From Poseidonia sp. (GTDB lineage Archaea > Thermoplasmatota > Poseidoniia > Poseidoniales > Poseidoniaceae), in NCBI GenBank assembly GCA_965661285.1, contig CBFIDD010000001.1, forward strand, positions 192,001-256,000: 64,000 nucleotides of DNA. The letters run 5' to 3'. Shown here piece by piece: positions 38,652-64,000 of the stretch. Under the pieces are notes generated by a model, which had not been told where the DNA came from, searched no databases, and saw nothing but the letters and a program-made list of their open reading frames with translations. The translations under genes and the position numbers were made by a program. Position 1 is the first letter of the stretch; every line of letters begins with the position of its first letter.

Positions 38652-39734
38652 ATGGGAATAACCGCCATGATTCCGGACATGACCATCGGTCAACTCACCA
38701 CAGAAGCCACCGCACGCTGGGGAGAGATATGGGACGCCCGCGCCACCCGAATGACCATTCTGCTGCTTTGCCCGCGCAAAGAGCGCAAAATGATGGAACT
38801 GCACGGCGACATGATCGAACACGGCCAACCGGTCATGGCGGTCTTCCACCGACCACGCGCTGAGGCGGACCTCCTGAAAGAGCAGGGCTTTGACACCCGA
38901 GCGGCATCGTTCCAATTCGTGAACCTCGCCACGGCCGATCTCGGCCCGTGGATGCAACAACTCGTCAATAACGAGGGATGGTTGAGAAGTTCCATCGCCC
39001 TCACCTCGACACCGTTCTCTGTTGGCTTGCCCTCGCAACGCCCGTTTGAGGCCGTTCAAACCCTGTGTTTCCGTCACCCGTCGCTGCCCGCTTTGGAACG
39101 CTACTACCTGCCCTATCCCGTTGAATCGCTTCCCGGAAAATGCTTCGTGAGCCTCCCTCGAAGGGGCGCCGCAGAGATGGCTCGCCAGCAGGCAGAAGTG
39201 TTGGGTGTTGGCCGACTTGAGAAACCAAAACCCGAACCCGTACCGGAACCCACACCAGCACCGGAACCTCAACCCGCACCGGTTGCAGAAGCACCGGCCG
39301 AACCAGCCCCGCAGCCCGCACCAGAAGAAACCGTGGAAGCGCCTGCCGAGGCCTCCGAGCCAGAACAAGCCGCCGTCCCACTGCCTCCTGCCACTACGAA
39401 ACCCACGGATGAGTCACCGGCCGAGGAGGTGGCCGTGCCGTTGCCCCCAGCCGCCGACGACGCAGCGGAACAGCAGAAGAACGCGGCCGAACCCTCCGAG
39501 GAGACCACCACGGAGCAGGCGAATTTGGAACTGCCCGAGGTTGAGGACGAAGAGAAACCCGAGATTTCGGAGATCGAAACCGAACTGCGGGCTTTCTTCC
39601 AGGAACTCATTGAAGCTGGCGTTGAACCTTCGGCCTTCATGGACGATCCCCGCTGGGAAGACATCAGTGAACGGGCGATTGCAGAGGGCTTGGAAACGTG
39701 GCCCATTCTTTTGCAAATGACCGCCATGAACTGA
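38652..39734 (+). CDS. Hypothetical protein: globular N-terminal domain, Pro/Glu/Ala linker, helical C-terminal domain
   Basis: Long ORF with host-like codon usage; start trimmed to ATG 38652, after the asd stop. Confidence 0.7.
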   Translation: MGITAMIPDMTIGQLTTEATARWGEIWDARATRMTILLLCPRKERKMMELHGDMIEHGQPVMAVFHRPRAEADLLKEQGFDTRAASFQFVNLATADLGPWMQQLVNNEGWLRSSIALTSTPFSVGLPSQRPFEAVQTLCFRHPSLPALERYYLPYPVESLPGKCFVSLPRRGAAEMARQQAEVLGVGRLEKPKPEPVPEPTPAPEPQPAPVAEAPAEPAPQPAPEETVEAPAEASEPEQAAVPLPPATTKPTDESPAEEVAVPLPPAADDAAEQQKNAAEPSEETTTEQANLELPEVEDEEKPEISEIETELRAFFQELIEAGVEPSAFMDDPRWEDISERAIAEGLETWPILLQMTAMN

Positions 39735-39780: not shown

Positions 39781-39975
39781 ATGGGATTCTGCATCAACTG
39801 CGGCCAACAACATCCTGACGGCACCCGCTTTTGCCGTTTCTGCGGCAACCAGCAACCCGGCGAGCAACTGCTTCAGCGTCTGCGCATTGAGGCGCAACAA
39901 ATCCACAGCATGCGTTTGCAAATGCAGTCCCAACAACCCCAACAGGGCAACCCCTACCAACAACGTCGCTGGTGA
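39781..39975 (+). CDS. Small zinc-ribbon protein with Gln-rich tail
   Basis: FCINCG...FCRFCG motif. Confidence 0.8.
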   Translation: MGFCINCGQQHPDGTRFCRFCGNQQPGEQLLQRLRIEAQQIHSMRLQMQSQQPQQGNPYQQRRW

Positions 39976-40634
39976 GGCGAATGCGCCCAAAGCACCTGGC
40001 GATGACGCTGTCCAAACTGAAACCCCACCCGTGCTCCGAGGTCGGTCTTGAGCAATACGCCACGGAGGGCGACCTCGCCGCCTATTGGATGCTCGCCGTC
40101 GACCAACTCGACGGTTTGGAAGGGCGCCATGTGGTTGACCTCGGCGCAGGCAACGGCATTCTGGGCATCGCTGCGCTCATGTTGGGGGCACAAAGCGTGG
40201 TGTTTGTTGAGGCCCACGAGGCGACCGCTGCCGTCCTCCAGCAGAACATCGACGAACTGGATGATGAACTGAAGGGACGCGCTCAAATCATCACCGCCCA
40301 CATTGGAGCCGATGAGGTCGACCTCGGCCACGCCGAACTGATCGTCATGAATCCGCCCTGGGGCGTTCAGCGAGCCAAGGCCGACCGCCCTTTTTTGGAA
40401 CTCGGGTTCGCATCGAGCGCCACCGCTGTTCACGTGCTCCACAGCGACCATGCTGCCCATCTCGAAGCCATGGCAAACGAAGCCGGGTGGGAAGGCGAGG
40501 TGGTGCTTCGCACGACGTTTCGACTCCCACCAACCTACGCGCACCACGGCCAGCGGAAAGGCGCAACCGACGTCAAATGCTGGCGGTTTCATCGCCCAGG
40601 CGACGCCCGATTGCCCCCTGAAAGCGATGATTGA
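39972..40634 (+). CDS. METTL5-family (putative rRNA m6A) methyltransferase
   Basis: LEQYAT, VDLGAGNGILG, MNPPWG, ADRPFL; lies directly upstream of csl4, the usual archaeal neighbourhood. Confidence 0.87.
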   Translation: MRRMRPKHLAMTLSKLKPHPCSEVGLEQYATEGDLAAYWMLAVDQLDGLEGRHVVDLGAGNGILGIAALMLGAQSVVFVEAHEATAAVLQQNIDELDDELKGRAQIITAHIGADEVDLGHAELIVMNPPWGVQRAKADRPFLELGFASSATAVHVLHSDHAAHLEAMANEAGWEGEVVLRTTFRLPPTYAHHGQRKGATDVKCWRFHRPGDARLPPESDD

Positions 40635-40723
40635 CCCATATGGGGGGTTCAAAAGGAAGAAACCCTCGCCTCAATTCAGCGAACGGTGTGCGACCCATCT
40701 CGGGCCATGCCTGCGAAAAAGGA

Positions 40724-42187
40724 ATGAGCATCATGACGGCGAGCCTCGTCACCCCCGGAAGCATCATCGCCAAAGAGGGCGACCACGAACACGGCGAAGG
40801 AACCGCCCTCGCTGACGGCAACATCGTCTCCACCGTAATCGGTTATGTCCACGTCGACAACGGCTCCATTTCCGTCTCCGCCTCAAAGCCCATCGTGGAA
40901 CCCGTCGTGGGCGACACCGTGCTTTGCGAAGTGGTGAAGCTCAACGAAAAGCACGGTGAAGCGATGATCCTCGCCGTTGAAGGCAAGCCCGGCTCCATTC
41001 AGCCTCAGCACCTCTACGGCCAGTTCTTCGTGACCGGTCTGGTTGACCGTTTCATGCACCAAACCTCGGACGCCATGCGCCGACGGGATGTTTGCCGTGC
41101 CGTGGTGAAAGAGGTTGAACCGGTCGTCCGCCTCGACTTCCGAGAGCGGGACGACTGCGGTGTGCTCCACGCCATCTGCCCGCCTTGTGGCGACACCCTG
41201 CAAGCCGAACTCGACGGCGATTGGAACGTCATGTGCCCCACCTGTGGCTACCAAGGCTACCGAGCCCTGGCCGACAACTTTGGTGCAGGTTGGGCGGAAC
41301 TCGACCAAGGGGCGAGTGCGCTGAACAACGCCGGCAAGCGCTGGGGCGCTGCTGCCGAAGCCATGTTCGCCAAAGGTCCAGCCGGCCGAGCCACCTTCAT
41401 CGCAGCCGATGTTCGTGAAGACGGACGAGAGCGCACCTACTTCCGCTTCGAAGGCCAAGACGGCGGACGCGGCGGTGGTCGCGGCGGGCGTCAGCGAGCC
41501 GCACCCGGCACCCGACTCTTTGTTGGCGGCCTGCCTCGAGATGTTGGCACCGATGAGCTCAGTGAACTCTTCAAGTCCCACGGGGACATGACCGATTGCG
41601 TCGTGTTGACCGATGATGCCGGCGTCAACCGAGGCTTTGGCTTCGTCACCTACGCCGAGAAATCCATGGCCGAAGCCGCCATCAAGGCCCTTGATGGCCA
41701 CCGCATCAATGGACGCCGCATCGGTGTTCGCGATGCTGATGACGACAAGAAGAAAGGCGGGAGAACGGAACGAAAGGAGCCAGAAGGTCTCAAGCTTTAC
41801 ATCGGAAACTTGCCGTTCTCCGCAACGCAAGACCAACTCAAGGCGATGGTCGCCGCTCACGCCACGGTGAACGAAGTTATTCTCGCCACCGGCCCCGGTG
41901 GGAAGGCCAAGGGCTTTGGCTTCGTCTTCATCGCAGAGAAGGACAAGGGCGAAGATGTCGTCAAGGCGCTCAACAACAGTGAAGTTGAGGGCCGCAAGAT
42001 CAAGGTCGACATCGCCAAATCCAAGGGCGGCAAAGGTGGAAACCGACGCGGTGGCCGTGATGGCAACCGACGCAGCGGCCGTGATGGCGATGGTGGAGGA
42101 AAATCCTCTCGCGAACTCCAAGCGCTCCGAGAAGAAGGCGAAGGCGGGAAGAAGCGCAAGCGACGCCCTCGCCCGAAGAAGGATTGA
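40724..42187 (+). CDS. csl4: Exosome RNA-binding subunit Csl4 fused to two RRM domains
   Basis: VTPG...GEGT N-terminal domain, S1 domain, GVLHAICPPCG...CPTCG Zn ribbon; RNP2/RNP1 pairs LFVGGL/RGFGFVTY and LYIGNL/KGFGFVFI. Confidence 0.85.
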   Translation: MSIMTASLVTPGSIIAKEGDHEHGEGTALADGNIVSTVIGYVHVDNGSISVSASKPIVEPVVGDTVLCEVVKLNEKHGEAMILAVEGKPGSIQPQHLYGQFFVTGLVDRFMHQTSDAMRRRDVCRAVVKEVEPVVRLDFRERDDCGVLHAICPPCGDTLQAELDGDWNVMCPTCGYQGYRALADNFGAGWAELDQGASALNNAGKRWGAAAEAMFAKGPAGRATFIAADVREDGRERTYFRFEGQDGGRGGGRGGRQRAAPGTRLFVGGLPRDVGTDELSELFKSHGDMTDCVVLTDDAGVNRGFGFVTYAEKSMAEAAIKALDGHRINGRRIGVRDADDDKKKGGRTERKEPEGLKLYIGNLPFSATQDQLKAMVAAHATVNEVILATGPGGKAKGFGFVFIAEKDKGEDVVKALNNSEVEGRKIKVDIAKSKGGKGGNRRGGRDGNRRSGRDGDGGGKSSRELQALREEGEGGKKRKRRPRPKKD

Positions 42188-42212
42188 AGGCGGCACCCCC
42201 GCCCCTTGAGCC

Positions 42213-43976
42213 ATGGTTGAATCGTCCGAGCCACGCTGGTTGGTCTTGGACGGCTACGAAGACGAACCCGCTGCCTTCGGTGTTCCCCCCTACGTTGGCT
42301 TCCATGTCCGCTATGTTTGTGGGGTGCTGGAATCCGCCGGCCTTGACTACGAATACCTGACCGTGGACCGTTATCGCCAAGCCCTGAAGTCCGACCCCGA
42401 GTCGATCGCCAAGCGCCTGAAGGATTGCCTCGGCGTGGTGTGCCTTGCCGGTGCGGTGGTCCCTGGAAAATACCTGCGGGGCACCCCCATTTCACTCAAA
42501 GAAACGCAGACGCTGATACGAAGTCTACCCCATGGCACGCCGGCCCTGTTTGGCGGATGGGCCATTCGTGGCTGGAAGCAGCAGGGCTGGACACCGCTTC
42601 GACCCAACCTTTTCCTCGCCGTTCAGGACACGGATGCCACTCTTGCACACTTCCTCGAAAAGGGGGAGTGGAAACACCAGCGCAGGACGGCCGAGCAATG
42701 GACGGCGTGGGCCCAAGCCGGTGCTGCAAGCAAAGCAGTGAGCGACCATCCCGACCTCGGAAGCGAATCGCAGGCCGGTCCGCTGACCTACGAAGTGGAG
42801 GTCTACCAGGGCTGTGTTCGCTACAAGCGAGGGTGCAAATTCTGCATTGAGCCGAAAAAAGGCGTCCCGATTTGGCGGACGCCAGAGGACATCATCCAGG
42901 AGGTTCGCATCGCCCACAACGCCGGCGTGCACCATGTCCGCCTCGGCGGCATGACCGACACCTACACATACATGGCCGATGGCGTGCGCGAGTTGGAATA
43001 CCCCGTGCCAAATCCTGAACCGATTGCGAAGTTGCTTCACGGGCTTCGTGAGGACGAGCGGCTCGGTATCCTCCACACCGATAACGGCAACCCGTCCATC
43101 ATCGCAGAGAACATGGAGCCATCTGAGGAAATCACGAAGACGCTCGTTGAAACGTTGTCCGACGGCGCCGTCCTCTCCTTCGGTTTGGAATCAGCCGACC
43201 CGAGCGTTCACGAGGCCAACTGGCTCAACTGCGACCCCACCCAACTCAAGACGGCGATTCGCCTCATCAACAAATACGGTAGCGTGCGTGGCGAGCGAGG
43301 CCTGCCCAAACTGCTGCCCGGACTCAACTTCATCGCCGGCCTGTACGGCGAAACCGAAGCGACCTACGGCATGAACATGGACTTGCTTCGAGACATCCGC
43401 AGCGAAGGCTTGCTGCTTCGCCGCATCAACATCCGCCAAGTAGAGGGCGAAGGCTTCCAAGAGGTCCCGTCAAACGCCTTTGCTTCGTTCAAGACCGCTT
43501 GCAGGGACGAGATCGACAAGCCGCTTCTCGAAGAATTGTTCCCGCTGGGCCAGGTGATTCATGACGTCCACTGGGAGTCCCACGACGGGCGAACCCGCTT
43601 GCCGGTTCATGAAACGGACCTCCATCGCGCCCCGGAGGTTCACGGGAAGGCCGGCATCACCTTTGGACGGCAAATCGGGGCCTACCCCATTCTGGTGGGC
43701 GTGGAATACAAGATTCCGCTCGAGACCCAGTCCAGCGTGATGATCACCGGCCATGGCGCCCGTTCCATCACCGGCGTGGAGGTGGGGCTGAGCATGGACA
43801 CCATCACCCAAAAACAACTTGAGGCCATTCCCGGAATCGGGAAAAAAACGGCATGGAATCTGATCAGTTCTCGGGCAAAGGCGAAATCGAAAGGACGAAA
43901 TCTGTCGCTGGAGGCATGGCTGGGAGGGGAATGTTCCGCCCATAACGAGGAATGGATACGGCGGATTATCAGTTGA
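42213..43976 (+). CDS. Radical SAM protein with C-terminal HhH (archaeal family)
   Basis: LDGYEDEPAAFGVPPY, GCVRYKRGCKFC, FGLESAD, RRINIRQV, RQIGAYP, IPGIGKK. Confidence 0.85.
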   Translation: MVESSEPRWLVLDGYEDEPAAFGVPPYVGFHVRYVCGVLESAGLDYEYLTVDRYRQALKSDPESIAKRLKDCLGVVCLAGAVVPGKYLRGTPISLKETQTLIRSLPHGTPALFGGWAIRGWKQQGWTPLRPNLFLAVQDTDATLAHFLEKGEWKHQRRTAEQWTAWAQAGAASKAVSDHPDLGSESQAGPLTYEVEVYQGCVRYKRGCKFCIEPKKGVPIWRTPEDIIQEVRIAHNAGVHHVRLGGMTDTYTYMADGVRELEYPVPNPEPIAKLLHGLREDERLGILHTDNGNPSIIAENMEPSEEITKTLVETLSDGAVLSFGLESADPSVHEANWLNCDPTQLKTAIRLINKYGSVRGERGLPKLLPGLNFIAGLYGETEATYGMNMDLLRDIRSEGLLLRRINIRQVEGEGFQEVPSNAFASFKTACRDEIDKPLLEELFPLGQVIHDVHWESHDGRTRLPVHETDLHRAPEVHGKAGITFGRQIGAYPILVGVEYKIPLETQSSVMITGHGARSITGVEVGLSMDTITQKQLEAIPGIGKKTAWNLISSRAKAKSKGRNLSLEAWLGGECSAHNEEWIRRIIS

Positions 43977-44007: not shown

Positions 44008-47000
44008 ATGAGAACCAGAGTTTTTGCCTTGGTGGCCTTGTTGTTGCTCACGTCACTGTCAGCCGTTCTTGACCAGCGTTCACCGTTCGTCCTTGACCAA
44101 GATAAGGTGTCAATGGAGTCCGGAAACAACAGCACGGGATGTGGGTACAACACCACCTACTTTTCGGTCTATGGCTCCTATGCCCCCTTCCCAGTCTACG
44201 ATGGTGATACCCTCAACACAACCGTTTCAACCAGCTGCAACATGCTGAACCAAACCATGACGGCCTCCTACGGTCTCTCGAACTCGACCACCTACCTTGC
44301 CAGTGGTAACTGGAGTTGGACAGCGACGACTCTCAGTGATAACCTCTCGTTTGAGGTGGCCAACATCCCTGCGGGGACCTATGTTCTCACGGTAGACGTT
44401 TACTACGGTTCGAATTATACCTCCCTGACGAGTTACAACACCACCATCACCGTGTTGACAAGTAACAACAGCGGGGGGGGCACCGGTTGTGGGTATGATG
44501 TGAACAACACCATGCTGATGGCGTACGCTGGGATGTACATGTACGACAACGACCCGTTCACCTCCTGGATCAGCACCTCTTGCGATCTCATCGGCACCCC
44601 GATGCTTATCACGGTGAACATCACGAACACATCGGGCACCATGGCCTCGACCAACTTCACCTACAATGGTTCAACCACCGGCTTCAGCGGCAACTTCAAC
44701 CTGTCCGCTGGCACCTTGAGTGCGGGTAACTACTCCTTCGCAGCCTCGCTATACTATTACCACAACACATCTGGATGGACTCATGTTGAAACGGACAGCA
44801 CCACCATCACGGTGTTGGCGTACACCTCTACCTCCTGCGGATTCCAAGCCTCCTCGGCCAGCGTCTTCGCCTACTCCACTTACGGCGGCTACGATGTCGG
44901 TGAAGACTTCGAAGGTGTCATCGCAACCTACTGTGCCATCTACAACGCCACCATGATGCTCGACTGGACGCTTCATGACGATGATAACAACCAGTCCGTT
45001 GACTCAGGCACCTACAATTGGACAGCACAGCAAACTCAGGAAGTGCACTATGTCAACTCAACTGCGCTCTCGACTGCTACAGTTGGCAACTATTCCTTCC
45101 ACGTTGAGTATTCCTGGTATAACAACTCCTCGATGAGCGTTGAGGTATTGGACACAGACAGCGACAGCTTCTGGGTCTACAACTACACCAGCGGTGGCGG
45201 CAACCAATCCAGCGGTTGTGGCAGCGACCCCGTGCATGCAACAGTCTATGCGTACTCCGACTTCTACGCCTACGACCTCGGCGAGGATTTCGACGGAACC
45301 ATCTCCACGTACTGTGCCATGACCAACGAAAGCATGATGCTTGATTGGGTGCTTTACGACGATGACAACAACCAATCCATCGATTCGGGTTCCTTTAACT
45401 GGACGGCCCAGCTAACCAGTGAGCAGCACAATGTTACGTCCACTTCGCTTGCCACGGCTGCAGAAGGAAACTACTCCTTCACCGTTGAATTTTCCTGGTA
45501 CAACACCTCGTCAATGGCCTGGGAGGTGCTCGATAGCGACACTGACGGCTTCTTTGTGATGAACATGAGCAGCGGTGGCGGCAACCACAGCAGCGGTCCT
45601 TCCTGCTCCGTTTACGCATGGTCCGACTATTACTGGTTCTCCGTTGGAGACAATTTTACCGGTGAAGTGGACTCGTATTGTTCCTTGACCAACGAGACGC
45701 TGATGATCGAGTGGGCCATCCTCAACACCGTCACCAACATGACGGTGGATGCAGGAAACATAAGCTGGACCACCACCATGTTCTCCGAGACGCAAAACGT
45801 CTCCTCCACGGCTCTCGCCAACCAAAACGCTGGCAACTACTCCTTCGCAGTCATGCTCTCGTGGTACAACACCTCGTCAATGGCATGGGAACTTCTTGAC
45901 AGCGACAGTGATCCGTTCTCCATCTACAGCGGGAGCACCGGCGGTGGCGGCAACCACAGCACAGGATGTGGAAGCGACCTTGCCTACACCATGGTGATGG
46001 CCTACGCGTCCTCCTCCTACAACGTCGGCGACACCCTCTATGGCGCCATCGACACCTACTGCCCGGTCAGCGGTGAAGCCTTCATGGTGGACTGGTCGGT
46101 TTATTCGTGGGACGCCGGTTACAACCTGACCCAAAGTACCTTTTTGTGGACGGCCAACAACAGCACCCACTACCACAATGTCGAAGTCACCAACCTGTCA
46201 GAAGGCAACTGGTCCCTCATTGCAACCCTGTACCACTACAACACCTCGAGCATGAGCTATGACGGAATTGACCAATCCATGGCAAACTTCTCGGTGTTCA
46301 ACACAACGCAACCCTCCATCGACGGGGTTGTGGCGGCTAGCATGACAGAATCGAATTACGCCAGCGGCGACACCGTTTCGTGGTTCATCGAAAGTTCCGA
46401 ACTTGTCATGGGCGAGGACTACCACCTCGAGTGGGCCGTCGTTGAAATCATGAGCAACACCACCGTTGCTACTGGCAACGCTTCGTGGACTGCCTACAAC
46501 AACATGAGTGGCGAACAAGGCAACCTTTCCGGTCTTTCCGATGGCATGTACTGCCTCGATGCTTCCCTGTACCAGCAGGTGGACACATACGCCTACTGGG
46601 TGGACTACGACTACGCTTGCTTCAACGTGGGCAGCAGCACCTCCGGTAATCACAGCGACGCCTTCATGAACATCGACTTCGACTACCAGATCACTCAAAT
46701 TGATGACGACACCATCGGTCTCACTTACACCGTCAACAACTCAGGTGACTGGGCGGGCAACTTCTACTACCAAGCCTATCTGAACCCTGGCGATATCATC
46801 GTTGACCACGTTTATGGCAACGTGAGCATCAATGGCATGGGCGTCCACACCGACAGCGTGACCTACGACATCGACGAACTTACGGACGGTGCAGAGGTTT
46901 GCATTGAAATGGCCTTTGTGAACATCAACGGCACCACGGAAGCAGAAGGCAACGAGTGCCTCACCATCGACATCGATAATGGCTCCAATACAGGCAATGA

Positions 47001-47664
47001 AACCGGCAACAACACCGGCGGAAACACCACCATCGACACCGACGGCGACGGCGTGTTCGACCAAGACGACCTCTGCCCCAACACCGCTGCTGGCGTGATG
47101 GTCGACGAGGACGGTTGCGAGGTCATTACGGCCCCAACCGATAATGACGGCGACGGCGTTATGGACGCTGATGATCTCTGTCCCAACACCCCTGCCGGCA
47201 CCACGGTGGACGCCACGGGGTGCGAGGTCGTTGACCCTGTGGACAACAACACGGACAACAACACCGGCAACACCAACGTTGCACCGAGCATCACCAACGT
47301 ATCGATCACCCCCCTCCTGCCGGAGATGGGCGACACCCTGACCTGCGCCTTCACGGCCAGCGACGACAACGGCGATACGCTCGCTGGCACCTATGTGTGG
47401 ACCGTGAACGGTACCATTGTAGCCGAACTTTCCAACACACTAAGCGATGGCTTCGATGTTGGCGACACTGTCACCTGCACGGTCTTGGTCACCGACGGAA
47501 CGAATTCCACCGAAGGAACGGCGACCACCGTCATCTTGCCCGCAGGCACCAACGATATTGTTGATGACCTCGAAGAGGGCGGCCTGCTGCCCTCGGTAGG
47601 CACCATCGGTACGCTCGTGGCCATCGCCTTCGGTGTTGGTCTGACCCGCCGCCAGGACGACTGA
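44008..47664 (+). CDS. Large Ser/Thr/Asn-rich cell-surface glycoprotein with tandem beta-rich repeats, TSP3-like repeats and C-terminal anchor
   Basis: Signal peptide; six Cys-pair modules; DxDGDGV..D.CPNT twice; very many N-x-S/T sequons; C-terminal LPSVG, hydrophobic helix, RR. Confidence 0.82.
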   Translation: MRTRVFALVALLLLTSLSAVLDQRSPFVLDQDKVSMESGNNSTGCGYNTTYFSVYGSYAPFPVYDGDTLNTTVSTSCNMLNQTMTASYGLSNSTTYLASGNWSWTATTLSDNLSFEVANIPAGTYVLTVDVYYGSNYTSLTSYNTTITVLTSNNSGGGTGCGYDVNNTMLMAYAGMYMYDNDPFTSWISTSCDLIGTPMLITVNITNTSGTMASTNFTYNGSTTGFSGNFNLSAGTLSAGNYSFAASLYYYHNTSGWTHVETDSTTITVLAYTSTSCGFQASSASVFAYSTYGGYDVGEDFEGVIATYCAIYNATMMLDWTLHDDDNNQSVDSGTYNWTAQQTQEVHYVNSTALSTATVGNYSFHVEYSWYNNSSMSVEVLDTDSDSFWVYNYTSGGGNQSSGCGSDPVHATVYAYSDFYAYDLGEDFDGTISTYCAMTNESMMLDWVLYDDDNNQSIDSGSFNWTAQLTSEQHNVTSTSLATAAEGNYSFTVEFSWYNTSSMAWEVLDSDTDGFFVMNMSSGGGNHSSGPSCSVYAWSDYYWFSVGDNFTGEVDSYCSLTNETLMIEWAILNTVTNMTVDAGNISWTTTMFSETQNVSSTALANQNAGNYSFAVMLSWYNTSSMAWELLDSDSDPFSIYSGSTGGGGNHSTGCGSDLAYTMVMAYASSSYNVGDTLYGAIDTYCPVSGEAFMVDWSVYSWDAGYNLTQSTFLWTANNSTHYHNVEVTNLSEGNWSLIATLYHYNTSSMSYDGIDQSMANFSVFNTTQPSIDGVVAASMTESNYASGDTVSWFIESSELVMGEDYHLEWAVVEIMSNTTVATGNASWTAYNNMSGEQGNLSGLSDGMYCLDASLYQQVDTYAYWVDYDYACFNVGSSTSGNHSDAFMNIDFDYQITQIDDDTIGLTYTVNNSGDWAGNFYYQAYLNPGDIIVDHVYGNVSINGMGVHTDSVTYDIDELTDGAEVCIEMAFVNINGTTEAEGNECLTIDIDNGSNTGNETGNNTGGNTTIDTDGDGVFDQDDLCPNTAAGVMVDEDGCEVITAPTDNDGDGVMDADDLCPNTPAGTTVDATGCEVVDPVDNNTDNNTGNTNVAPSITNVSITPLLPEMGDTLTCAFTASDDNGDTLAGTYVWTVNGTIVAELSNTLSDGFDVGDTVTCTVLVTDGTNSTEGTATTVILPAGTNDIVDDLEEGGLLPSVGTIGTLVAIAFGVGLTRRQDD

Positions 47665-59965: not shown

Positions 59966-61095
59966 TTACGCTCACGCTCTCATGTTCCAATCCACAATGC
60001 GGAAGCGCCATGCGACTGCCGTTCACAACCCACTCGGTTTTTCCGAACATCGAAAACCGTTGCGCAGTGTGTAATCAAGGCGTCCTCATCATTTCACAGA
60101 TTGAAAATGAGGACCCTCCTCTTGCAACCACGGCAGCCATCCATGCAGAAGCACCCGCCAGCGATGTCTCATTGAACGAGAGTCTTGGAGGAAACCGCAT
60201 TTTCACAGCATTCCAAAACCGATTGGCGCCTCTTGTCGTCATCCTTCAACTCATTGATGAACTGAGTGAGGAAACCGGAGACGTTGAGATTTCAGCCCTG
60301 GTTGAAGCCTTCAAAGAGCGCTCGGGATTCTTGCGAAAGCACCTCTCCGACCGTCTCGAGCACCCGCTTGGCGTCAAGCGAGGCCAGAAACTGTCGGACG
60401 GCTTTCCGGCCGTTGACCGCCCTGGCCCATTGAACATCACCCTTCGAAACTACATCGGTTGCGATGAAAAACGATTGTTGGTAGGCCGTGGGCTCATCCA
60501 GGAGTTTGACCTGGTGACCATTGTTGACGATACCAAACTCAAGCTGACAGAGAAAGCAAAGCCGTTCCTCAAACTTCCTCACCTCGCTGACAAAATTGAG
60601 ACCACACAGGAGTTGGTAGCGTTCTACTCCAATCCAGTTCTACCGAAGTACTACGAAGAAGCGTTTGCGTTCGAACTCGCTCATGCAGTTGGAACGTTAG
60701 CTCCCGATCAGCACGATTGGATGATGCACATTCTCGGAAAAATCATCGCTTGCGAACACAAGAACGGTTGGGATTCCAACGCCTATGCTGCCGATGAAAC
60801 GCAACTCGCCAGTGTTGGGAAGGCTCATGCGCGGTGGAGGCTCATCGACCACACGTTCGGAACCTTGTATGAGAAATTCGAAGCCCAGGCGGTGCGAAAG
60901 GCTCACCATGACCCTGAGGGACAAGCCAGGAGTCGTCATGAGAGCCACGTCAATGGGAAGCTTGGCAGCGTTTTGAGTCATCTCAAGGAACTCGGGTTCA
61001 TTGTACCCGTGGCTGTGGGGAACACGAAGAATTTCGCAGCAACGGAGCGTGGGCACAGATACCAAGATTCAATGTCCAAAGGAGTTGAAAAGTGA
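59962..61095 (+). CDS. Hypothetical protein with probable N-terminal Zn ribbon and winged-helix-like segments
   Basis: ORF track start is 60010, but the frame extends to CTG 59962, giving CSNPQC...CAVC. wHTH-like LSHLKELGFI...FAATERG at the C-terminus. Confidence 0.65.
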   Translation: MITLTLSCSNPQCGSAMRLPFTTHSVFPNIENRCAVCNQGVLIISQIENEDPPLATTAAIHAEAPASDVSLNESLGGNRIFTAFQNRLAPLVVILQLIDELSEETGDVEISALVEAFKERSGFLRKHLSDRLEHPLGVKRGQKLSDGFPAVDRPGPLNITLRNYIGCDEKRLLVGRGLIQEFDLVTIVDDTKLKLTEKAKPFLKLPHLADKIETTQELVAFYSNPVLPKYYEEAFAFELAHAVGTLAPDQHDWMMHILGKIIACEHKNGWDSNAYAADETQLASVGKAHARWRLIDHTFGTLYEKFEAQAVRKAHHDPEGQARSRHESHVNGKLGSVLSHLKELGFIVPVAVGNTKNFAATERGHRYQDSMSKGVEK

Positions 61096-61147
61096 TGATT
61101 TTTAGAACCCAAGGTAGATATACCTGTTTTGAAAGTTAGGTGGATGC

Positions 61148-63280
61148 ATGACGATTGAGTGGGTTTTTGATAAAGCGGGAGCGAACATGACCAAGCACCG
61201 TGACATGGAGGAAGGAATCGTCCAAGCCACAAGCACGATGACTCGCCTCGAGATTCTAGCTCGGGAAAACGAACAAAATCTTGTGGACCATCCTGCAGAC
61301 AACACAAAGCCCACACGATGCACCTATGAGGTGAAAAAACTCTCAGGGTCTGTCAAAGATGATTTTTATGCCACACTATGTATGAGTGATTATGGACCTC
61401 ACATAGATGGGGCAATAAAACCGCCCATTGCTGATTTCCCTGTTGCAACGAACCTTGTTTCAGATACCAGTGAAGACCTAAATCTTTTGATAATCCGCCA
61501 CGACAATGGAATTGGTTTACTCGGTGGTGAATTCATTGATGAGGGGACGGTCGACAAAAATTTTCGGGCGCTCGTGAAATCTTACGGACTTAATGAGAAG
61601 GGCGCAGATGGCGGCGGAGGTTCTCACGGTGTTGGGAAAAACGTTTACTGGCAGTGGTCCAAACACGGAATTGTCCTTTTTTATTCAAGCCTGTCAAAAG
61701 ATTACAAGGGCCACACTCGCAGATTCATTGGTACAGGCCGAGTGAAGGTGGCTCACATGGAGAAGGTAGGAGGGCCAACTTACCACCCCTATGGCCTCCT
61801 TGGAACAAAAACTACTCATGGAGGCGTTGATGCCTGTGTTTCGTTGTATGATGATGACGCAGATACCCTTGCGAAAAAACTCGGGCTAAATGTAAGGTCT
61901 CCAACTGAACCAGGTACAACCATCGTCATTGTAGGATTCAGGGACCCATTGGATCCAACAAAAGATTGGGTTGATGAAGCAATCAATGGAGAAACAACCT
62001 TGCGATTTTCGTCTGAGAAGAGTTGGTTTCCCGCAAAACTATCTAATGCACTCGAGGTATCTTATGTTGACGCATCAGGACCAGAAAACTGGGACCCAAC
62101 CGTAGGTAAAAGTTTTCGATTGTTGAAATGGTTGGAAAAGGGCCTTGATGAGGAGAAAGGGGCGGATGAATTAGTCCCCGGTCGCCCAAAACGTTGTCCT
62201 ACAACTTTGAAGAGAATTGAACTCGACTTGTCCATCCCAAGAGATTACCCAGGAAACAGCACAACTGGAGTCTTACGGTCAAAGGCCGTGCTGGCACTGA
62301 TGATTGTTGATGATGAAGAATTCGACCAACCGAACCCAGAACTTGGAGATGACAAATGGGGGACTACGGCGTGTATCAGACACACGGGCATGGTGGTCAC
62401 ATACAAACCATTCATTCAAAAACCTACAAAGTTTTATCGAGGCGTCCTGTTAGTTGGTAAGAGCGTTGATACTTTTGACAAAAAACTCCGGGGCACGCTC
62501 AATGCTGATGCACAGAAATTGGCAGAAGAAATGATGAAGTTCAGTGAGCCCGCAGTGCATGATGACTGGCAACCCAAAAATTTCAGCGCATACGTCGCAG
62601 GAAACGGTTCACTAGAATCTGGGTACAGAGCAGTCGCATCCGTTGGTGAAAGAAGAATTTCAACCTTCCTCAAAGATGTTGAGAAAGCAACAAGAGAAGC
62701 ACTTGGCCTTCTCGCACCACCGAAGGCCAAGAAATCTGCTGACTGGGCAGATTTGTCAAAAGAACTCGATTTTGGCTCAAGCAACTCTGATTCTGGAGGC
62801 AGGATCATCAGCATTACATCTTCAAAGGTGGTCAAAACTGATGGAAATAAAGCTAAACTTTCATTCAATGTTGATGTGCCTAGATTGGGGCCTGCAAACG
62901 GATGGAATTCGAAGACCACACATTGGTGGCTCAAAATCGTACCCAAACTGTTGTGGCCAAACGGGAAAAAGCAGACACCTCCCACAGAGATTGTCTGTAT
63001 TGACTTTGCTAATTTGCTGGATGATGCAAACAACTCAACATGGAAGAACCTAGCAAAGGTGAATTATGCTACTCGCAAAGCGGAGTGGAAGAAGAAAGCC
63101 AGCCGTCAAGCAAAAGCCATGAAAATTGATGAATGGGTTGGCAAGGTGAACCACTTGGAAAAGGCAGAAGTATTGACAAAAAACATCTCGTTGTCTTTCA
63201 AGAACATTGAAATTGACTTAACAGGATATGAGAATGCTATGTTGGTATTGTCTATCGAAGCTGGAGAGGTGAGACCATGA
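61148..63280 (+). CDS. GHKL (HATPase_c/MORC/MutL-like) ATPase-domain protein
   Basis: N-box RENEQNLVD, G1 HDNGIGL, G2 GGSHGVGK, G3 PGTTIVI in the expected order. Confidence 0.72.
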   Translation: MTIEWVFDKAGANMTKHRDMEEGIVQATSTMTRLEILARENEQNLVDHPADNTKPTRCTYEVKKLSGSVKDDFYATLCMSDYGPHIDGAIKPPIADFPVATNLVSDTSEDLNLLIIRHDNGIGLLGGEFIDEGTVDKNFRALVKSYGLNEKGADGGGGSHGVGKNVYWQWSKHGIVLFYSSLSKDYKGHTRRFIGTGRVKVAHMEKVGGPTYHPYGLLGTKTTHGGVDACVSLYDDDADTLAKKLGLNVRSPTEPGTTIVIVGFRDPLDPTKDWVDEAINGETTLRFSSEKSWFPAKLSNALEVSYVDASGPENWDPTVGKSFRLLKWLEKGLDEEKGADELVPGRPKRCPTTLKRIELDLSIPRDYPGNSTTGVLRSKAVLALMIVDDEEFDQPNPELGDDKWGTTACIRHTGMVVTYKPFIQKPTKFYRGVLLVGKSVDTFDKKLRGTLNADAQKLAEEMMKFSEPAVHDDWQPKNFSAYVAGNGSLESGYRAVASVGERRISTFLKDVEKATREALGLLAPPKAKKSADWADLSKELDFGSSNSDSGGRIISITSSKVVKTDGNKAKLSFNVDVPRLGPANGWNSKTTHWWLKIVPKLLWPNGKKQTPPTEIVCIDFANLLDDANNSTWKNLAKVNYATRKAEWKKKASRQAKAMKIDEWVGKVNHLEKAEVLTKNISLSFKNIEIDLTGYENAMLVLSIEAGEVRP

Positions 63281-64000
63281 GCAACACATCAAAAACACCT
63301 GCAATTATGCTGCCACACGAAACCGGAGAAATTACACTTACAAAGGCAATTGTTGAATTCAAAGATACATCCGGGAATCCTTGTTGGGACAAATATGAGT
63401 GGGTTAATTCTGATGATGATTCTCCCCGAGTGGATGCTCGCGAGTCGTATCCAAACTATTCAGAAGATCAACTCTATTCACCCGTTGATACCTGCGAGGT
63501 TTCCTTGACATTTTCTGCTGATACGGAGGATTGTCTCATGGATGTTGACGATGAATTCCAATATTGGGTCAAAATTATTAGCAGTGCATCAAAGTACCAG
63601 ATTGTGAGGCCTGGAGTAGAATCCAAGCGAGGGAAATATAATACCACGATGTCCGTCACCCTACTCCGAGATGAGTTTCTGAACCTCAAAGGACTTGTAG
63701 AGTGTGAGATTATCCTAATTAAATCAGGAGACGGCACGTCCGTCGGTACGAATCCTGTCAAGACTACCAGCGGAGTTTTTGCGACCTCTGACGGAGCAAT
63801 TCTTGCTACTTCCGATTCAGATTCAACGTTACAAATTGTGTTGGACGACCCATCCGCCCCGACATCAAAGGGAATGGAACTTGAATGGATTGACATGAGC
63901 GATACTCCAAACGCACAATATGTCTTGAATTATTTGAATTGTGAAAATCCCAATGAAACGAACTTCAAAATCACACTCCAATTGAATGACAAGTCTCACC
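63277..64000 (+). CDS. Hypothetical protein (partial), translationally coupled to the GHKL gene
   Basis: ATGA overlap at 63277-63280 with SD-like GGAGAGGTGA; frame MSNTSKTPAIMLPHE... open to the window end by manual translation. Confidence 0.8.
   Translation, partial: MSNTSKTPAIMLPHETGEITLTKAIVEFKDTSGNPCWDKYEWVNSDDDSPRVDARESYPNYSEDQLYSPVDTCEVSLTFSADTEDCLMDVDDEFQYWVKIISSASKYQIVRPGVESKRGKYNTTMSVTLLRDEFLNLKGLVECEIILIKSGDGTSVGTNPVKTTSGVFATSDGAILATSDSDSTLQIVLDDPSAPTSKGMELEWIDMSDTPNAQYVLNYLNCENPNETNFKITLQLNDKSH

Follow-up and report, generated by a model that had tools for sequence, protein, structure and literature searches.

A single-gene fusion of the exosome cap subunit Csl4 to RRM and RGG modules across the archaeal order Poseidoniales

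Why should a complete archaeal exosome cap subunit share one reading frame with two RNA recognition motifs (RRMs)? The question is raised by a gene at positions 40724–42187 of a 64,000-nucleotide window, the whole stretch of DNA analysed here, which corresponds to positions 192001–256000 of contig C1 of a Poseidonia sp. genome (Marine Group IIa, Poseidoniaceae; 1.98 Mb, 8 contigs, 93% complete). A first-pass annotation made from the sequence alone had described the gene as the cap subunit Csl4 joined, in one uninterrupted open reading frame (ORF), to tandem RRMs, arginine-glycine-glycine (RGG) boxes and a basic tail. The frame is a single stop-free ORF at 40631–42187 on the forward (+) strand, where all parts of the gene described below also lie; it is open from TTG 40631, and translation from ATG 40724 gives 487 amino acids (aa) plus stop. 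The N-terminus common to all 12 congeners compared is MTASLVTPG, beginning at Met4 (ATG 40733), 2 of them have no Met upstream of that position, and AGGA lies at 40720–40723, ahead of the candidate starts. Because Met4 is conserved in the congeners and AGGA stands where it does, the sequence comparison places the true start at 40724 or, more likely, at 40733. Database names for the protein vary (Csl4, hypothetical, nucleolin, polyadenylate-binding or cold-inducible RNA-binding protein), one homologue being named [quoted passage not shown] at NCBI. A literature search found no paper on a Csl4-RRM fusion, and the supplementary tables of Marine Group II (MGII) pangenome studies may carry the gene.

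The N-terminal part of the protein is a complete Csl4, as first annotated, consisting of the N-terminal domain, the S1 domain and a four-cysteine Zn ribbon. The NCBIfam Csl4 equivalog model NF034126 matched residues 8–186 over profile positions 2–178 of 180 at 92.5 bits (cut-off 90), and scored 95.3 bits on the gene in a six-frame search of the genome; the only other match to this model was the Rrp4 ORF, below the cut-off, and the sole Csl4 found in this 93%-complete genome is the fused gene. PDB entry 2ba1_A (Archaeoglobus fulgidus Csl4) aligned over its residues 3–177 to residues 8–189 (expectation value (E) 5e-11), and a Foldseek search with an AlphaFold2 (AF2) model returned the same chain first (E 9.4e-16, target template modelling (TM) score 0.65, 186 columns, 26% identity), tandem-RRM structures coming after Csl4 in the list. 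The N-terminal domain (ECR1_N, Pfam PF14382, 31.6 bits, cut-off 27) occupies residues 8–45 (40745–40858), and the S1-like beta-barrel approximately residues 56–145 (40889–41158), where the AF2 strands had a predicted local distance difference test (pLDDT) score above 90. The Pfam S1 and EXOSC1 models gave no match at E 0.01 on this protein, EXOSC1 matching weakly in relatives; with these models silent, the S1 assignment is based on the NCBIfam profile, matched along its full length, together with the alignment to the PDB chain and the similarity of fold. The C-terminal Zn ribbon, residues 146–186 (41159–41281), contains C152, C155, C171 and C174, of which C152 and C171 were invariant and C155 and C174 at least 90% conserved in alignments of 25 and 46 rows, one row (L027) being without the Zn-ribbon cysteines. 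Canonical archaeal Csl4 (A. fulgidus 2BA1/3M7N/3M85; NF034126) thus has the same three domains and is the best PDB match in both sequence and fold, but it measures about 180–215 aa and ends just past the Zn ribbon, whereas the Poseidoniales form adds 300 residues.

Two RRMs stand in the added part, at residues 263–338 (41510–41737) and 356–432 (41789–42019), in close agreement with the limits first assigned (about 41513–41730 and 41790–42015). The Pfam model RRM_1 (PF00076) matched twice, with 73.8 and 47.7 bits (cut-off 20.7; whole protein E 4.4e-33), its match to RRM1 covering residues 265–333. The ribonucleoprotein (RNP) motifs, annotated as canonical, are present in both domains, with RNP2 LFVGGL (265–270) and RNP1 RGFGFVTY (303–310) in RRM1, and RNP2 LYIGNL (358–363) and RNP1 KGFGFVFI (396–403) in RRM2, the last RNP1 position of RRM2 being Ile. 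In both AF2 models, each RRM showed the beta-alpha-beta-beta-alpha-beta order at pLDDT >90. No RRM_1 match was obtained elsewhere in this genome, and no free RRM ORF was found in it. RRM2 is followed by a basic Gly/Arg-rich stretch (RGG box 2, residues 433–460, 42020–42103), predicted to be disordered and including, at residues 441–455, the annotated run RRGGRDGNRRSGRDG; by the motif SSRELQALREE (residues 461–471, 42104–42136), modelled as a helix over residues 462–472 with pLDDT of about 70; and by a Lys/Arg tail, KKRKRRPRPKK, recognised in the sequence at residues 476–486 (42149–42181), again as annotated.

Between the Zn ribbon and RRM1, three further elements were distinguished. A helical module at residues 187–222 (41282–41389) was predicted with pLDDT 80–90 and helices at 197–201, 209–216 and 218–222 (AF2, 46-row alignment); it carries the motif LNxxGxRW, in which N201, G204, R206 and W207 are conserved across families and W207 is invariant. 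The module was not found in stand-alone Csl4 of the other lineages examined and, on the sequences compared, is specific to the order Poseidoniales. A conserved segment follows at residues 223–246 (41390–41461), ending in ATFIAADVREDGRERTYFRFEG, and is predicted to be disordered in isolation, pLDDT falling below 50 for residues 225–232 and 238–255 in the AF2 model with the deeper alignment; D229 and R231 are conserved order-wide, D229 being invariant in the 25-row alignment. RGG box 1, residues 247–262 (41462–41509), opens with the annotated GGRGGGRGGR (247–256). An ESM Atlas search with residues 187–262 gave no usable match, and in an ORF scan of the whole genome the C-terminal helix motif and both middle-segment motifs occurred only in the Csl4-RRM gene, anything else being short chance matches in unrelated frames.

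Selection on these parts was estimated as the ratio of nonsynonymous to synonymous substitution (dN/dS) by the Nei-Gojobori method over the 12 congeners, in which pairs are non-independent and dS is about 0.9. The ratio was 0.072 for the Csl4 core (residues 8–186) and 0.060 for the whole extension (187–487), so that the extension is as constrained as the core. The lowest value belonged to the helical module (0.022), followed by the C-terminal helix (residues 459–472, 0.032), the segment 223–246 (0.034), RGG box 1 (0.038), RRM1 (0.043), the Lys/Arg tail (0.08), RRM2 (0.088) and the basic stretch 433–458 (0.18), which is the least constrained part, and purifying selection acts on every module of the protein. 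The stretch of about 60 aa ahead of RGG box 1 had been annotated as a linker, but it is no plain one, as residues 187–222 are predicted to fold into helices and residues 187–246 are the most constrained stretch. The combination of constraint and predicted disorder in residues 223–246 suggests, from the models, a segment that folds upon binding.

The fusion is not a peculiarity of this contig. A search of 5.8 billion proteins returned 533 homologues, and the 120 listed were 449–528 aa long, 119 of them bearing both RRM_1 and ECR1_N as precomputed domains. Among Poseidoniales genomes, 198/201 (the source genome included) had a match, distributed as 97/99 in MGIIa (family f1), 2/2 in a further Poseidoniales family (f2) and 98/99 in MGIIb (family f3). 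The MGIIa matches listed span both parts in one stop-free frame (e.g. G003, residues 1–487 at 70% identity; G144, residues 2–443 at 43%), the exceptions being contig-end fragments (G140, G170, G076) and a TAA-containing frame (G198), and in MGIIb the Csl4 part and a single RRM share one frame (e.g. G002, contig C4). When loci were fetched, 25/26 yielded a single ORF joining Csl4 to one or more RRMs; at locus L068 (G005) no ORF passed the motif filter, and L064 (G100) and L101, which hold N/X, were left out of the alignments. A search for sequencing runs holding the gene listed no RNA run, but six contig sets whose kind is not recorded, deriving from three studies. Contiguity was checked in four of these sets, and contigs from runs of all three studies spanned the Csl4-RRM junction without indels (40753–42230, 40815–42257 and 40785–41892). 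Separate genes in reads or relatives, the case named at first pass as speaking against a fusion, were not encountered; relatives and contigs show the same single-ORF arrangement, and Csl4-RRM is a true single-gene fusion, order-wide in Poseidoniales. Open frames of 1000–1100 aa in some MGIIb genomes were considered as a larger fusion, which was rejected at one locus, L024, where the Csl4 frame stops at a TGA and the downstream radical-SAM gene continues in the same frame.

The modules added to Csl4 differ by family. In MGIIa the order is Csl4, middle segment, RGG, RRM1, RRM2, basic RGG and an SSRELxAxxEE helix, with the Lys/Arg tail in 7/11 MGIIa rows of the 25-row alignment, and family f2 is laid out alike, its RRMs numbering one or two and its helix motif being present. 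The MGIIb version (12/12 aligned) shares with it Csl4, the helical module with LNxxGxRW, the RGG box and a C-terminal RRM, but after the RGG it has a CxxC-x17-CxxC motif at the place of RRM1, a helical linker, a single RRM and a long RGG tail, and it lacks the SSREL helix motif. In the 2 MGIIb proteins scanned, the CxxC motif was recognised as zf_Tbcl_2, a Zn finger of treble-clef type, with 50.1 and 28.2 bits against a cut-off of 27. A representative-protein search with residues 1–255 against 1.84 billion proteins gave 214 hits, and among the best 150, which were listed, ten forms of 387–487 aa reaching into the middle segment stood within the 15 best matches; five of these ten were read, four having an RRM and the fifth, P0252, lacking one but carrying RGG repeats, the helix motif (with a REEG tail) and a pair of treble-clef-like Zn fingers. 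The other listed matches were Csl4 proteins of 180–200 aa plus a few long outliers, an RRM being present in 0/10 of the outliers scanned. Two representatives, P0316 and P0386, were Csl4 without the Poseidoniales middle segment and with plain RG-rich C-terminal tails. Since the family variants, P0252, P0316 and P0386 differ in what has been added, the sequence comparison shows that RNA-binding modules have been attached to the Csl4 C-terminus repeatedly.

Outside the order, the RRM and Csl4 are found apart. RRM_1 matched in 141/401 Thermoplasmatota genomes sampled, which for this phylum contradicts the initial statement of RRMs being uncommon in archaea. Beyond Poseidoniales, the RRM_1 matches listed sit in ORFs of 80–158 aa, with counts of 10/10 in family f4 (MGIII-like class mates outside the order) and 20/24 in family f19. 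The RRM was located in a separate ORF of 81–158 aa in 5/5 genomes of f4 and in 5 more genomes, each representing a different Thermoplasmatota family, and 7/10 of these outgroup genomes had a Csl4 match in an ORF of 185–214 aa on another contig. Formation of the fusion from neighbouring genes was considered and is unsupported, csl4 and the free RRM gene being on different contigs in those 7/10 genomes, that is, in all where both were found.

These free-standing proteins also bear on where the RRMs came from. The best single-domain PDB scores were 42.8 bits for RRM1 (hnRNP A2/B1) and 42.7 bits for RRM2 (chloroplast cS22), and scores against 20 RRM segments of 18 small prokaryotic proteins (80–210 aa, mostly single-RRM proteins of 80–106 aa) were 42.8–60.6 bits for RRM1 and 31.9–66.7 bits for RRM2, a comparison biased in that the prokaryotic set consists of the best hits of a far larger database than the eukaryotic RRMs of the PDB. 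Against the free-standing RRMs of class mates, RRM1 and RRM2 scored up to 57.1 and 56.4 bits. The description of the domains as eukaryote-style is accordingly not upheld, small prokaryotic and sister-lineage RRMs scoring at least as well as the best eukaryotic PDB RRMs, and on these scores a eukaryotic origin is not supported and need not be invoked. The NCBIfam model NF058537 (Rbp_regulator) reached 100.8 bits (cut-off 100) over two stretches. The fused RRMs share domain family, canonical RNP1/RNP2 motifs and this cut-off with stand-alone Rbp-type proteins, but the latter are single domains of about 80–160 aa, whereas the fused RRMs sit in a 487-aa protein and have an RNP1 of GFGFVT[YF] type in place of GFGFVEM. 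An RRM tree of 75 segments and 84 columns (3 duplicates removed from 78; no eukaryotic rows, so that it cannot name a donor) placed 38 free-standing RRMs on one side of a branch with 91/88 support and the fused RRMs on the other. MGIIa RRM1 and the f2 RRMs formed a clade (99/96), as did 8/11 of the MGIIa RRM2 sequences (99/99), which were joined weakly to the MGIIb RRM. The sequence comparison shows capture of the RRM by Csl4 to predate the split of the Poseidoniales families.

The partners that a Csl4 cap requires for the expected assembly are encoded in the genome, as the first-pass annotation had asked to be confirmed: rrp4, rrp41 and rrp42 lie on contig C2 in the order psmA-SBDS-rrp4-rrp41-rrp42, and dnaG lies on contig C4. 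Rrp41 scored 326 bits, above its cut-off of 318.7, and DnaG 356 bits (cut-off 300), while Rrp42 (238 bits) and Rrp4 (156 bits) were best hits yet below their equivalog cut-offs. DnaG was found in 40/41 Poseidoniales genomes, and replacement of DnaG by the RRMs was rejected as an explanation, DnaG being present at full length. Complex prediction for Csl4 residues 1–262 with DnaG gave scores of 0.18 and 0.00 against a mark of 0.32, which is uninformative either way. The DnaG locus of the source genome is C4:203229–204491, and in 17/20 MGIIa ORFs listed DnaG has an N-terminal extension of 10–24 residues, basic and Gly/Asn-rich, before the KYxI start, only some having RGG; MGIIb DnaG is without this extension. 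A third ORF with an RNase_PH domain was also noted, apart from the rrp41-rrp42 pair (C3:203810–204199, 286-aa frame, 79.9 bits).

Known systems give two points of comparison. In eukaryotes, the adaptors RBM7 (in NEXT) and Nrd1-Nab3 are separate RRM polypeptides that are recruited via helicase or cofactor complexes and deliver RNA to the exosome. They resemble the Poseidoniales protein in bringing RRM modules together with the exosome, a functional analogy only, and differ from it in that the Poseidoniales RRMs stand in cis within a core cap subunit. Among archaea, recruitment of DnaG to the cap by Csl4 was shown for Sulfolobus solfataricus. DnaG is reported to bind the Csl4-exosome and to confer a preference for poly(A) (PMC3672285), and another report describes full-length S. 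solfataricus Csl4 engineered to carry the N-terminal RNA-binding domain of DnaG, with which the reconstituted exosome degraded A-rich RNA better (Hou et al. 2014, PMC4227792). The engineered fusion resembles the natural one in placing an RNA-binding domain in cis at the Csl4 C-terminus on the exosome cap, and differs in being artificial, with another RNA-binding fold and no RGG, whereas the natural fusion coexists with full-length DnaG. In Pyrococcus abyssi, binding of aRNase J needs the C-terminal domain of Csl4 (PMC7144898); because that domain docks aRNase J there, the point at which the Poseidoniales arm is attached is a known interaction surface.

By analogy with these systems, the RRM/RGG extension probably serves as a built-in RNA-recruiting arm on the exosome cap that biases substrate choice, a role of the kind proposed at first pass; we infer that the protein joins the cap, that its arm binds RNA and that this alters which substrates are chosen. 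The Csl4 part would take its usual archaeal place on the Rrp41/Rrp42 ring, and from its Zn ribbon the helical module would lead to the conserved flexible segment and RGG box, and then to the RRMs, the second RGG tract, the helix and the tail. The tethered RRMs and Gly/Arg tracts would capture single-stranded RNA and concentrate it locally above the S1 pore. Affinity would then be higher, and there would be a bias in the choice of RNAs for degradation or, when the reaction runs in reverse, for A-tailing. A single complex could bear as many as three arms, the number being set by the numbers of Csl4 and Rrp4 in the cap, and the roughly 40 flexible residues before RRM1 would, by our own estimate, be long enough to reach the cap centre, while residues 187–246 and 461–471 may dock on a neighbouring subunit or partner. 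Several observations weigh against this proposal. The most constrained pieces (187–246 and 461–471) are not recognisable RNA-binding modules, and an important part of the function may therefore be protein docking. The modules vary by family (two RRMs; Zn finger plus one RRM; no RRM in P0252), so the extension does not depend on having an RRM. DnaG, known to bind poly(A) as a partner of the cap, is still encoded, so the arm is no simple replacement for it. Finally, three Poseidoniales genomes (82, 93 and 93% complete) had no Csl4 above the Rrp4-like background, which is read, without proof, as assembly gaps.

Other explanations for the extension were weighed against the same evidence. It may be mainly a protein-docking or assembly scaffold, in which residues 223–246 and 461–471 recruit lineage-specific partners and, with the RGG tracts, organise a larger RNA-decay assembly or condensate. 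This is unlikely, though it draws on the lowest dN/dS values falling in 187–246 and 461–471, which are not RNA-binding folds, on the predicted disorder of 223–258 alone, as is common for motifs whose folding is coupled to binding, on the docking of partners by the Csl4 C-terminal domain in other archaea (PMC7144898 and PMC4227792), and on the RGG/RG-rich tracts that are also present on DnaG, in MGIIa alone, and in this genome on a DUF655 protein and a protein with RanBP2-type Zn fingers. Against it, the segment and helix motifs occurred in no other ORF of the genome and no partner was identified, both RRMs keep their RNP aromatics under purifying selection, and the helix motif is missing in MGIIb. 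An extended form, to which we would likewise give a small chance, has the MGII cap as a hub, on which 223–246 and the SSRELxAxxEE helix dock partners and the RGG/RRM arms build an archaeal RNA-decay body (condensate) with Gly/Arg-rich DnaG, DUF655 and FUS-like RanBP2-Zn-finger/RG proteins.

The arm could alternatively act on RNA in general, as a chaperone of the cold-inducible Rbp kind to which small bacterial RRM proteins belong, and be tethered to Csl4 while working largely independently of exosome targeting. The Rbp_regulator model is reached, both RRMs score in the ranges given above against small RRM proteins, sister lineages have free-standing RRM proteins of this type, one fragment is labelled "cold-inducible RNA-binding protein" at JGI, and, there being no other RRM in the genome, any Rbp-type function must come from Csl4-RRM. 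Yet the fusion is fixed order-wide without a free RRM gene (RRM_1 in 56/57 MGIIa and 36/37 MGIIb genomes, every listed row in a frame of 301–598 aa), the fused RRMs separate from the free-standing ones in the tree (91/88), and if location were irrelevant, it would be difficult to see why the RRMs should be permanently joined to a cap subunit; a chaperone role is thus considered improbable. Still less probable, and hardly to be expected, is an autoinhibitory or gating arm, whose basic tails and RRMs would bend back onto the S1 pore and limit access to it until freed by a signal or a partner. Regulatory tails are known in other nucleases, and the long flexible tethers would permit such a fold-back, a mere analogy; the AF2 models have no confident contact between arm and core (predicted TM score 0.41–0.44, tethers of low pLDDT), and the engineered fusion of Csl4 with an RNA-binding domain stimulated degradation and did not inhibit it (PMC4227792). 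That two adjacent genes were joined by a sequencing or assembly error, or that the contig is a metagenomic chimera, has a negligible chance of being true, given matches in 198/201 genomes on hundreds of independent contigs, the junction contigs of three studies without indels and codon-level purifying selection across the junction, nothing having been found in its favour. The RNA-recruiting arm remains the reading preferred here.

The surroundings of the gene were also described. Directly upstream of csl4 lies a METTL5-like RNA methyltransferase with an NPPWG motif (39972–40634, +), matching PDB 1wy7 (PH1948) at E 1.3e-26 and human METTL5 (6h2u) at E 4.8e-16. An NPPxG methyltransferase ORF was also found directly upstream of stand-alone csl4 at 7/7 non-MGII Thermoplasmatota loci examined, and because the same pair occurs there, the methyltransferase-csl4 pair is, by its gene order, an old operon, which predates the fusion and has nothing to do with the RGG boxes. 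Methylation of RGG arginines by the upstream enzyme was considered as the reason for the pairing and rejected, the enzyme being METTL5/PH1948-like and the pair existing where Csl4 has no RGG. Further upstream, an acidic Pro/Glu-rich ORF of about 350 aa (38679–39734, +) had no Pfam or NCBIfam match, and similar ORFs occupy the same place in L027 and L028. On the 3' side of csl4, a radical-SAM protein of 587 aa with a weak C-terminal helix-hairpin-helix (HhH) match (42213–43976, +) keeps its position in loci of all three Poseidoniales families. A repetitive protein of 1218 aa (44008–47664, +) begins with a signal-like stretch, is very rich in N-x-S/T sequons and ends in a hydrophobic anchor, features that make it a probable surface glycoprotein. 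Over positions 60001–64000, which close the window, the guanine plus cytosine content falls from about 0.60 to 0.50 and then 0.44. Elsewhere in the genome, a 340-aa protein (C1:412058–413077, +) has two RanBP2-type Zn fingers (PF00641, E 1.6e-16) and long RG/RGG-type repeats, its best PDB match being the FUS zinc finger, a FUS-like combination of modules in an archaeon; its first ~80 residues have no assignment. A DUF655/HhH protein on contig C5 (L081:1044–1892, −) has an N-terminal basic QGG/RGG-rich extension, and its gene is directly upstream of a 291-aa ORF that is KsgA/Dim1-like by eye only.

Poseidoniales rank with the most abundant archaea in surface seawater, and their sole Csl4 is unlike that of every studied archaeal exosome, in that RNA-binding modules would be built into the cap itself. 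Two assumptions are corrected by the comparison, one holding archaeal RRMs to be rare, the other taking this architecture as a sign of eukaryotic origin. Were the cap also a hub as outlined above, the RNA-decay body built there would have its analogues in the RNase E bodies of bacteria and the RNP granules of eukaryotes. The order offers a testable system for how tethered RNA-binding domains affect exosome specificity, with the engineered fusion as a benchmark, and, with different modules at the same Csl4 position in each family, a natural experiment on the rise of exosome substrate adaptors.

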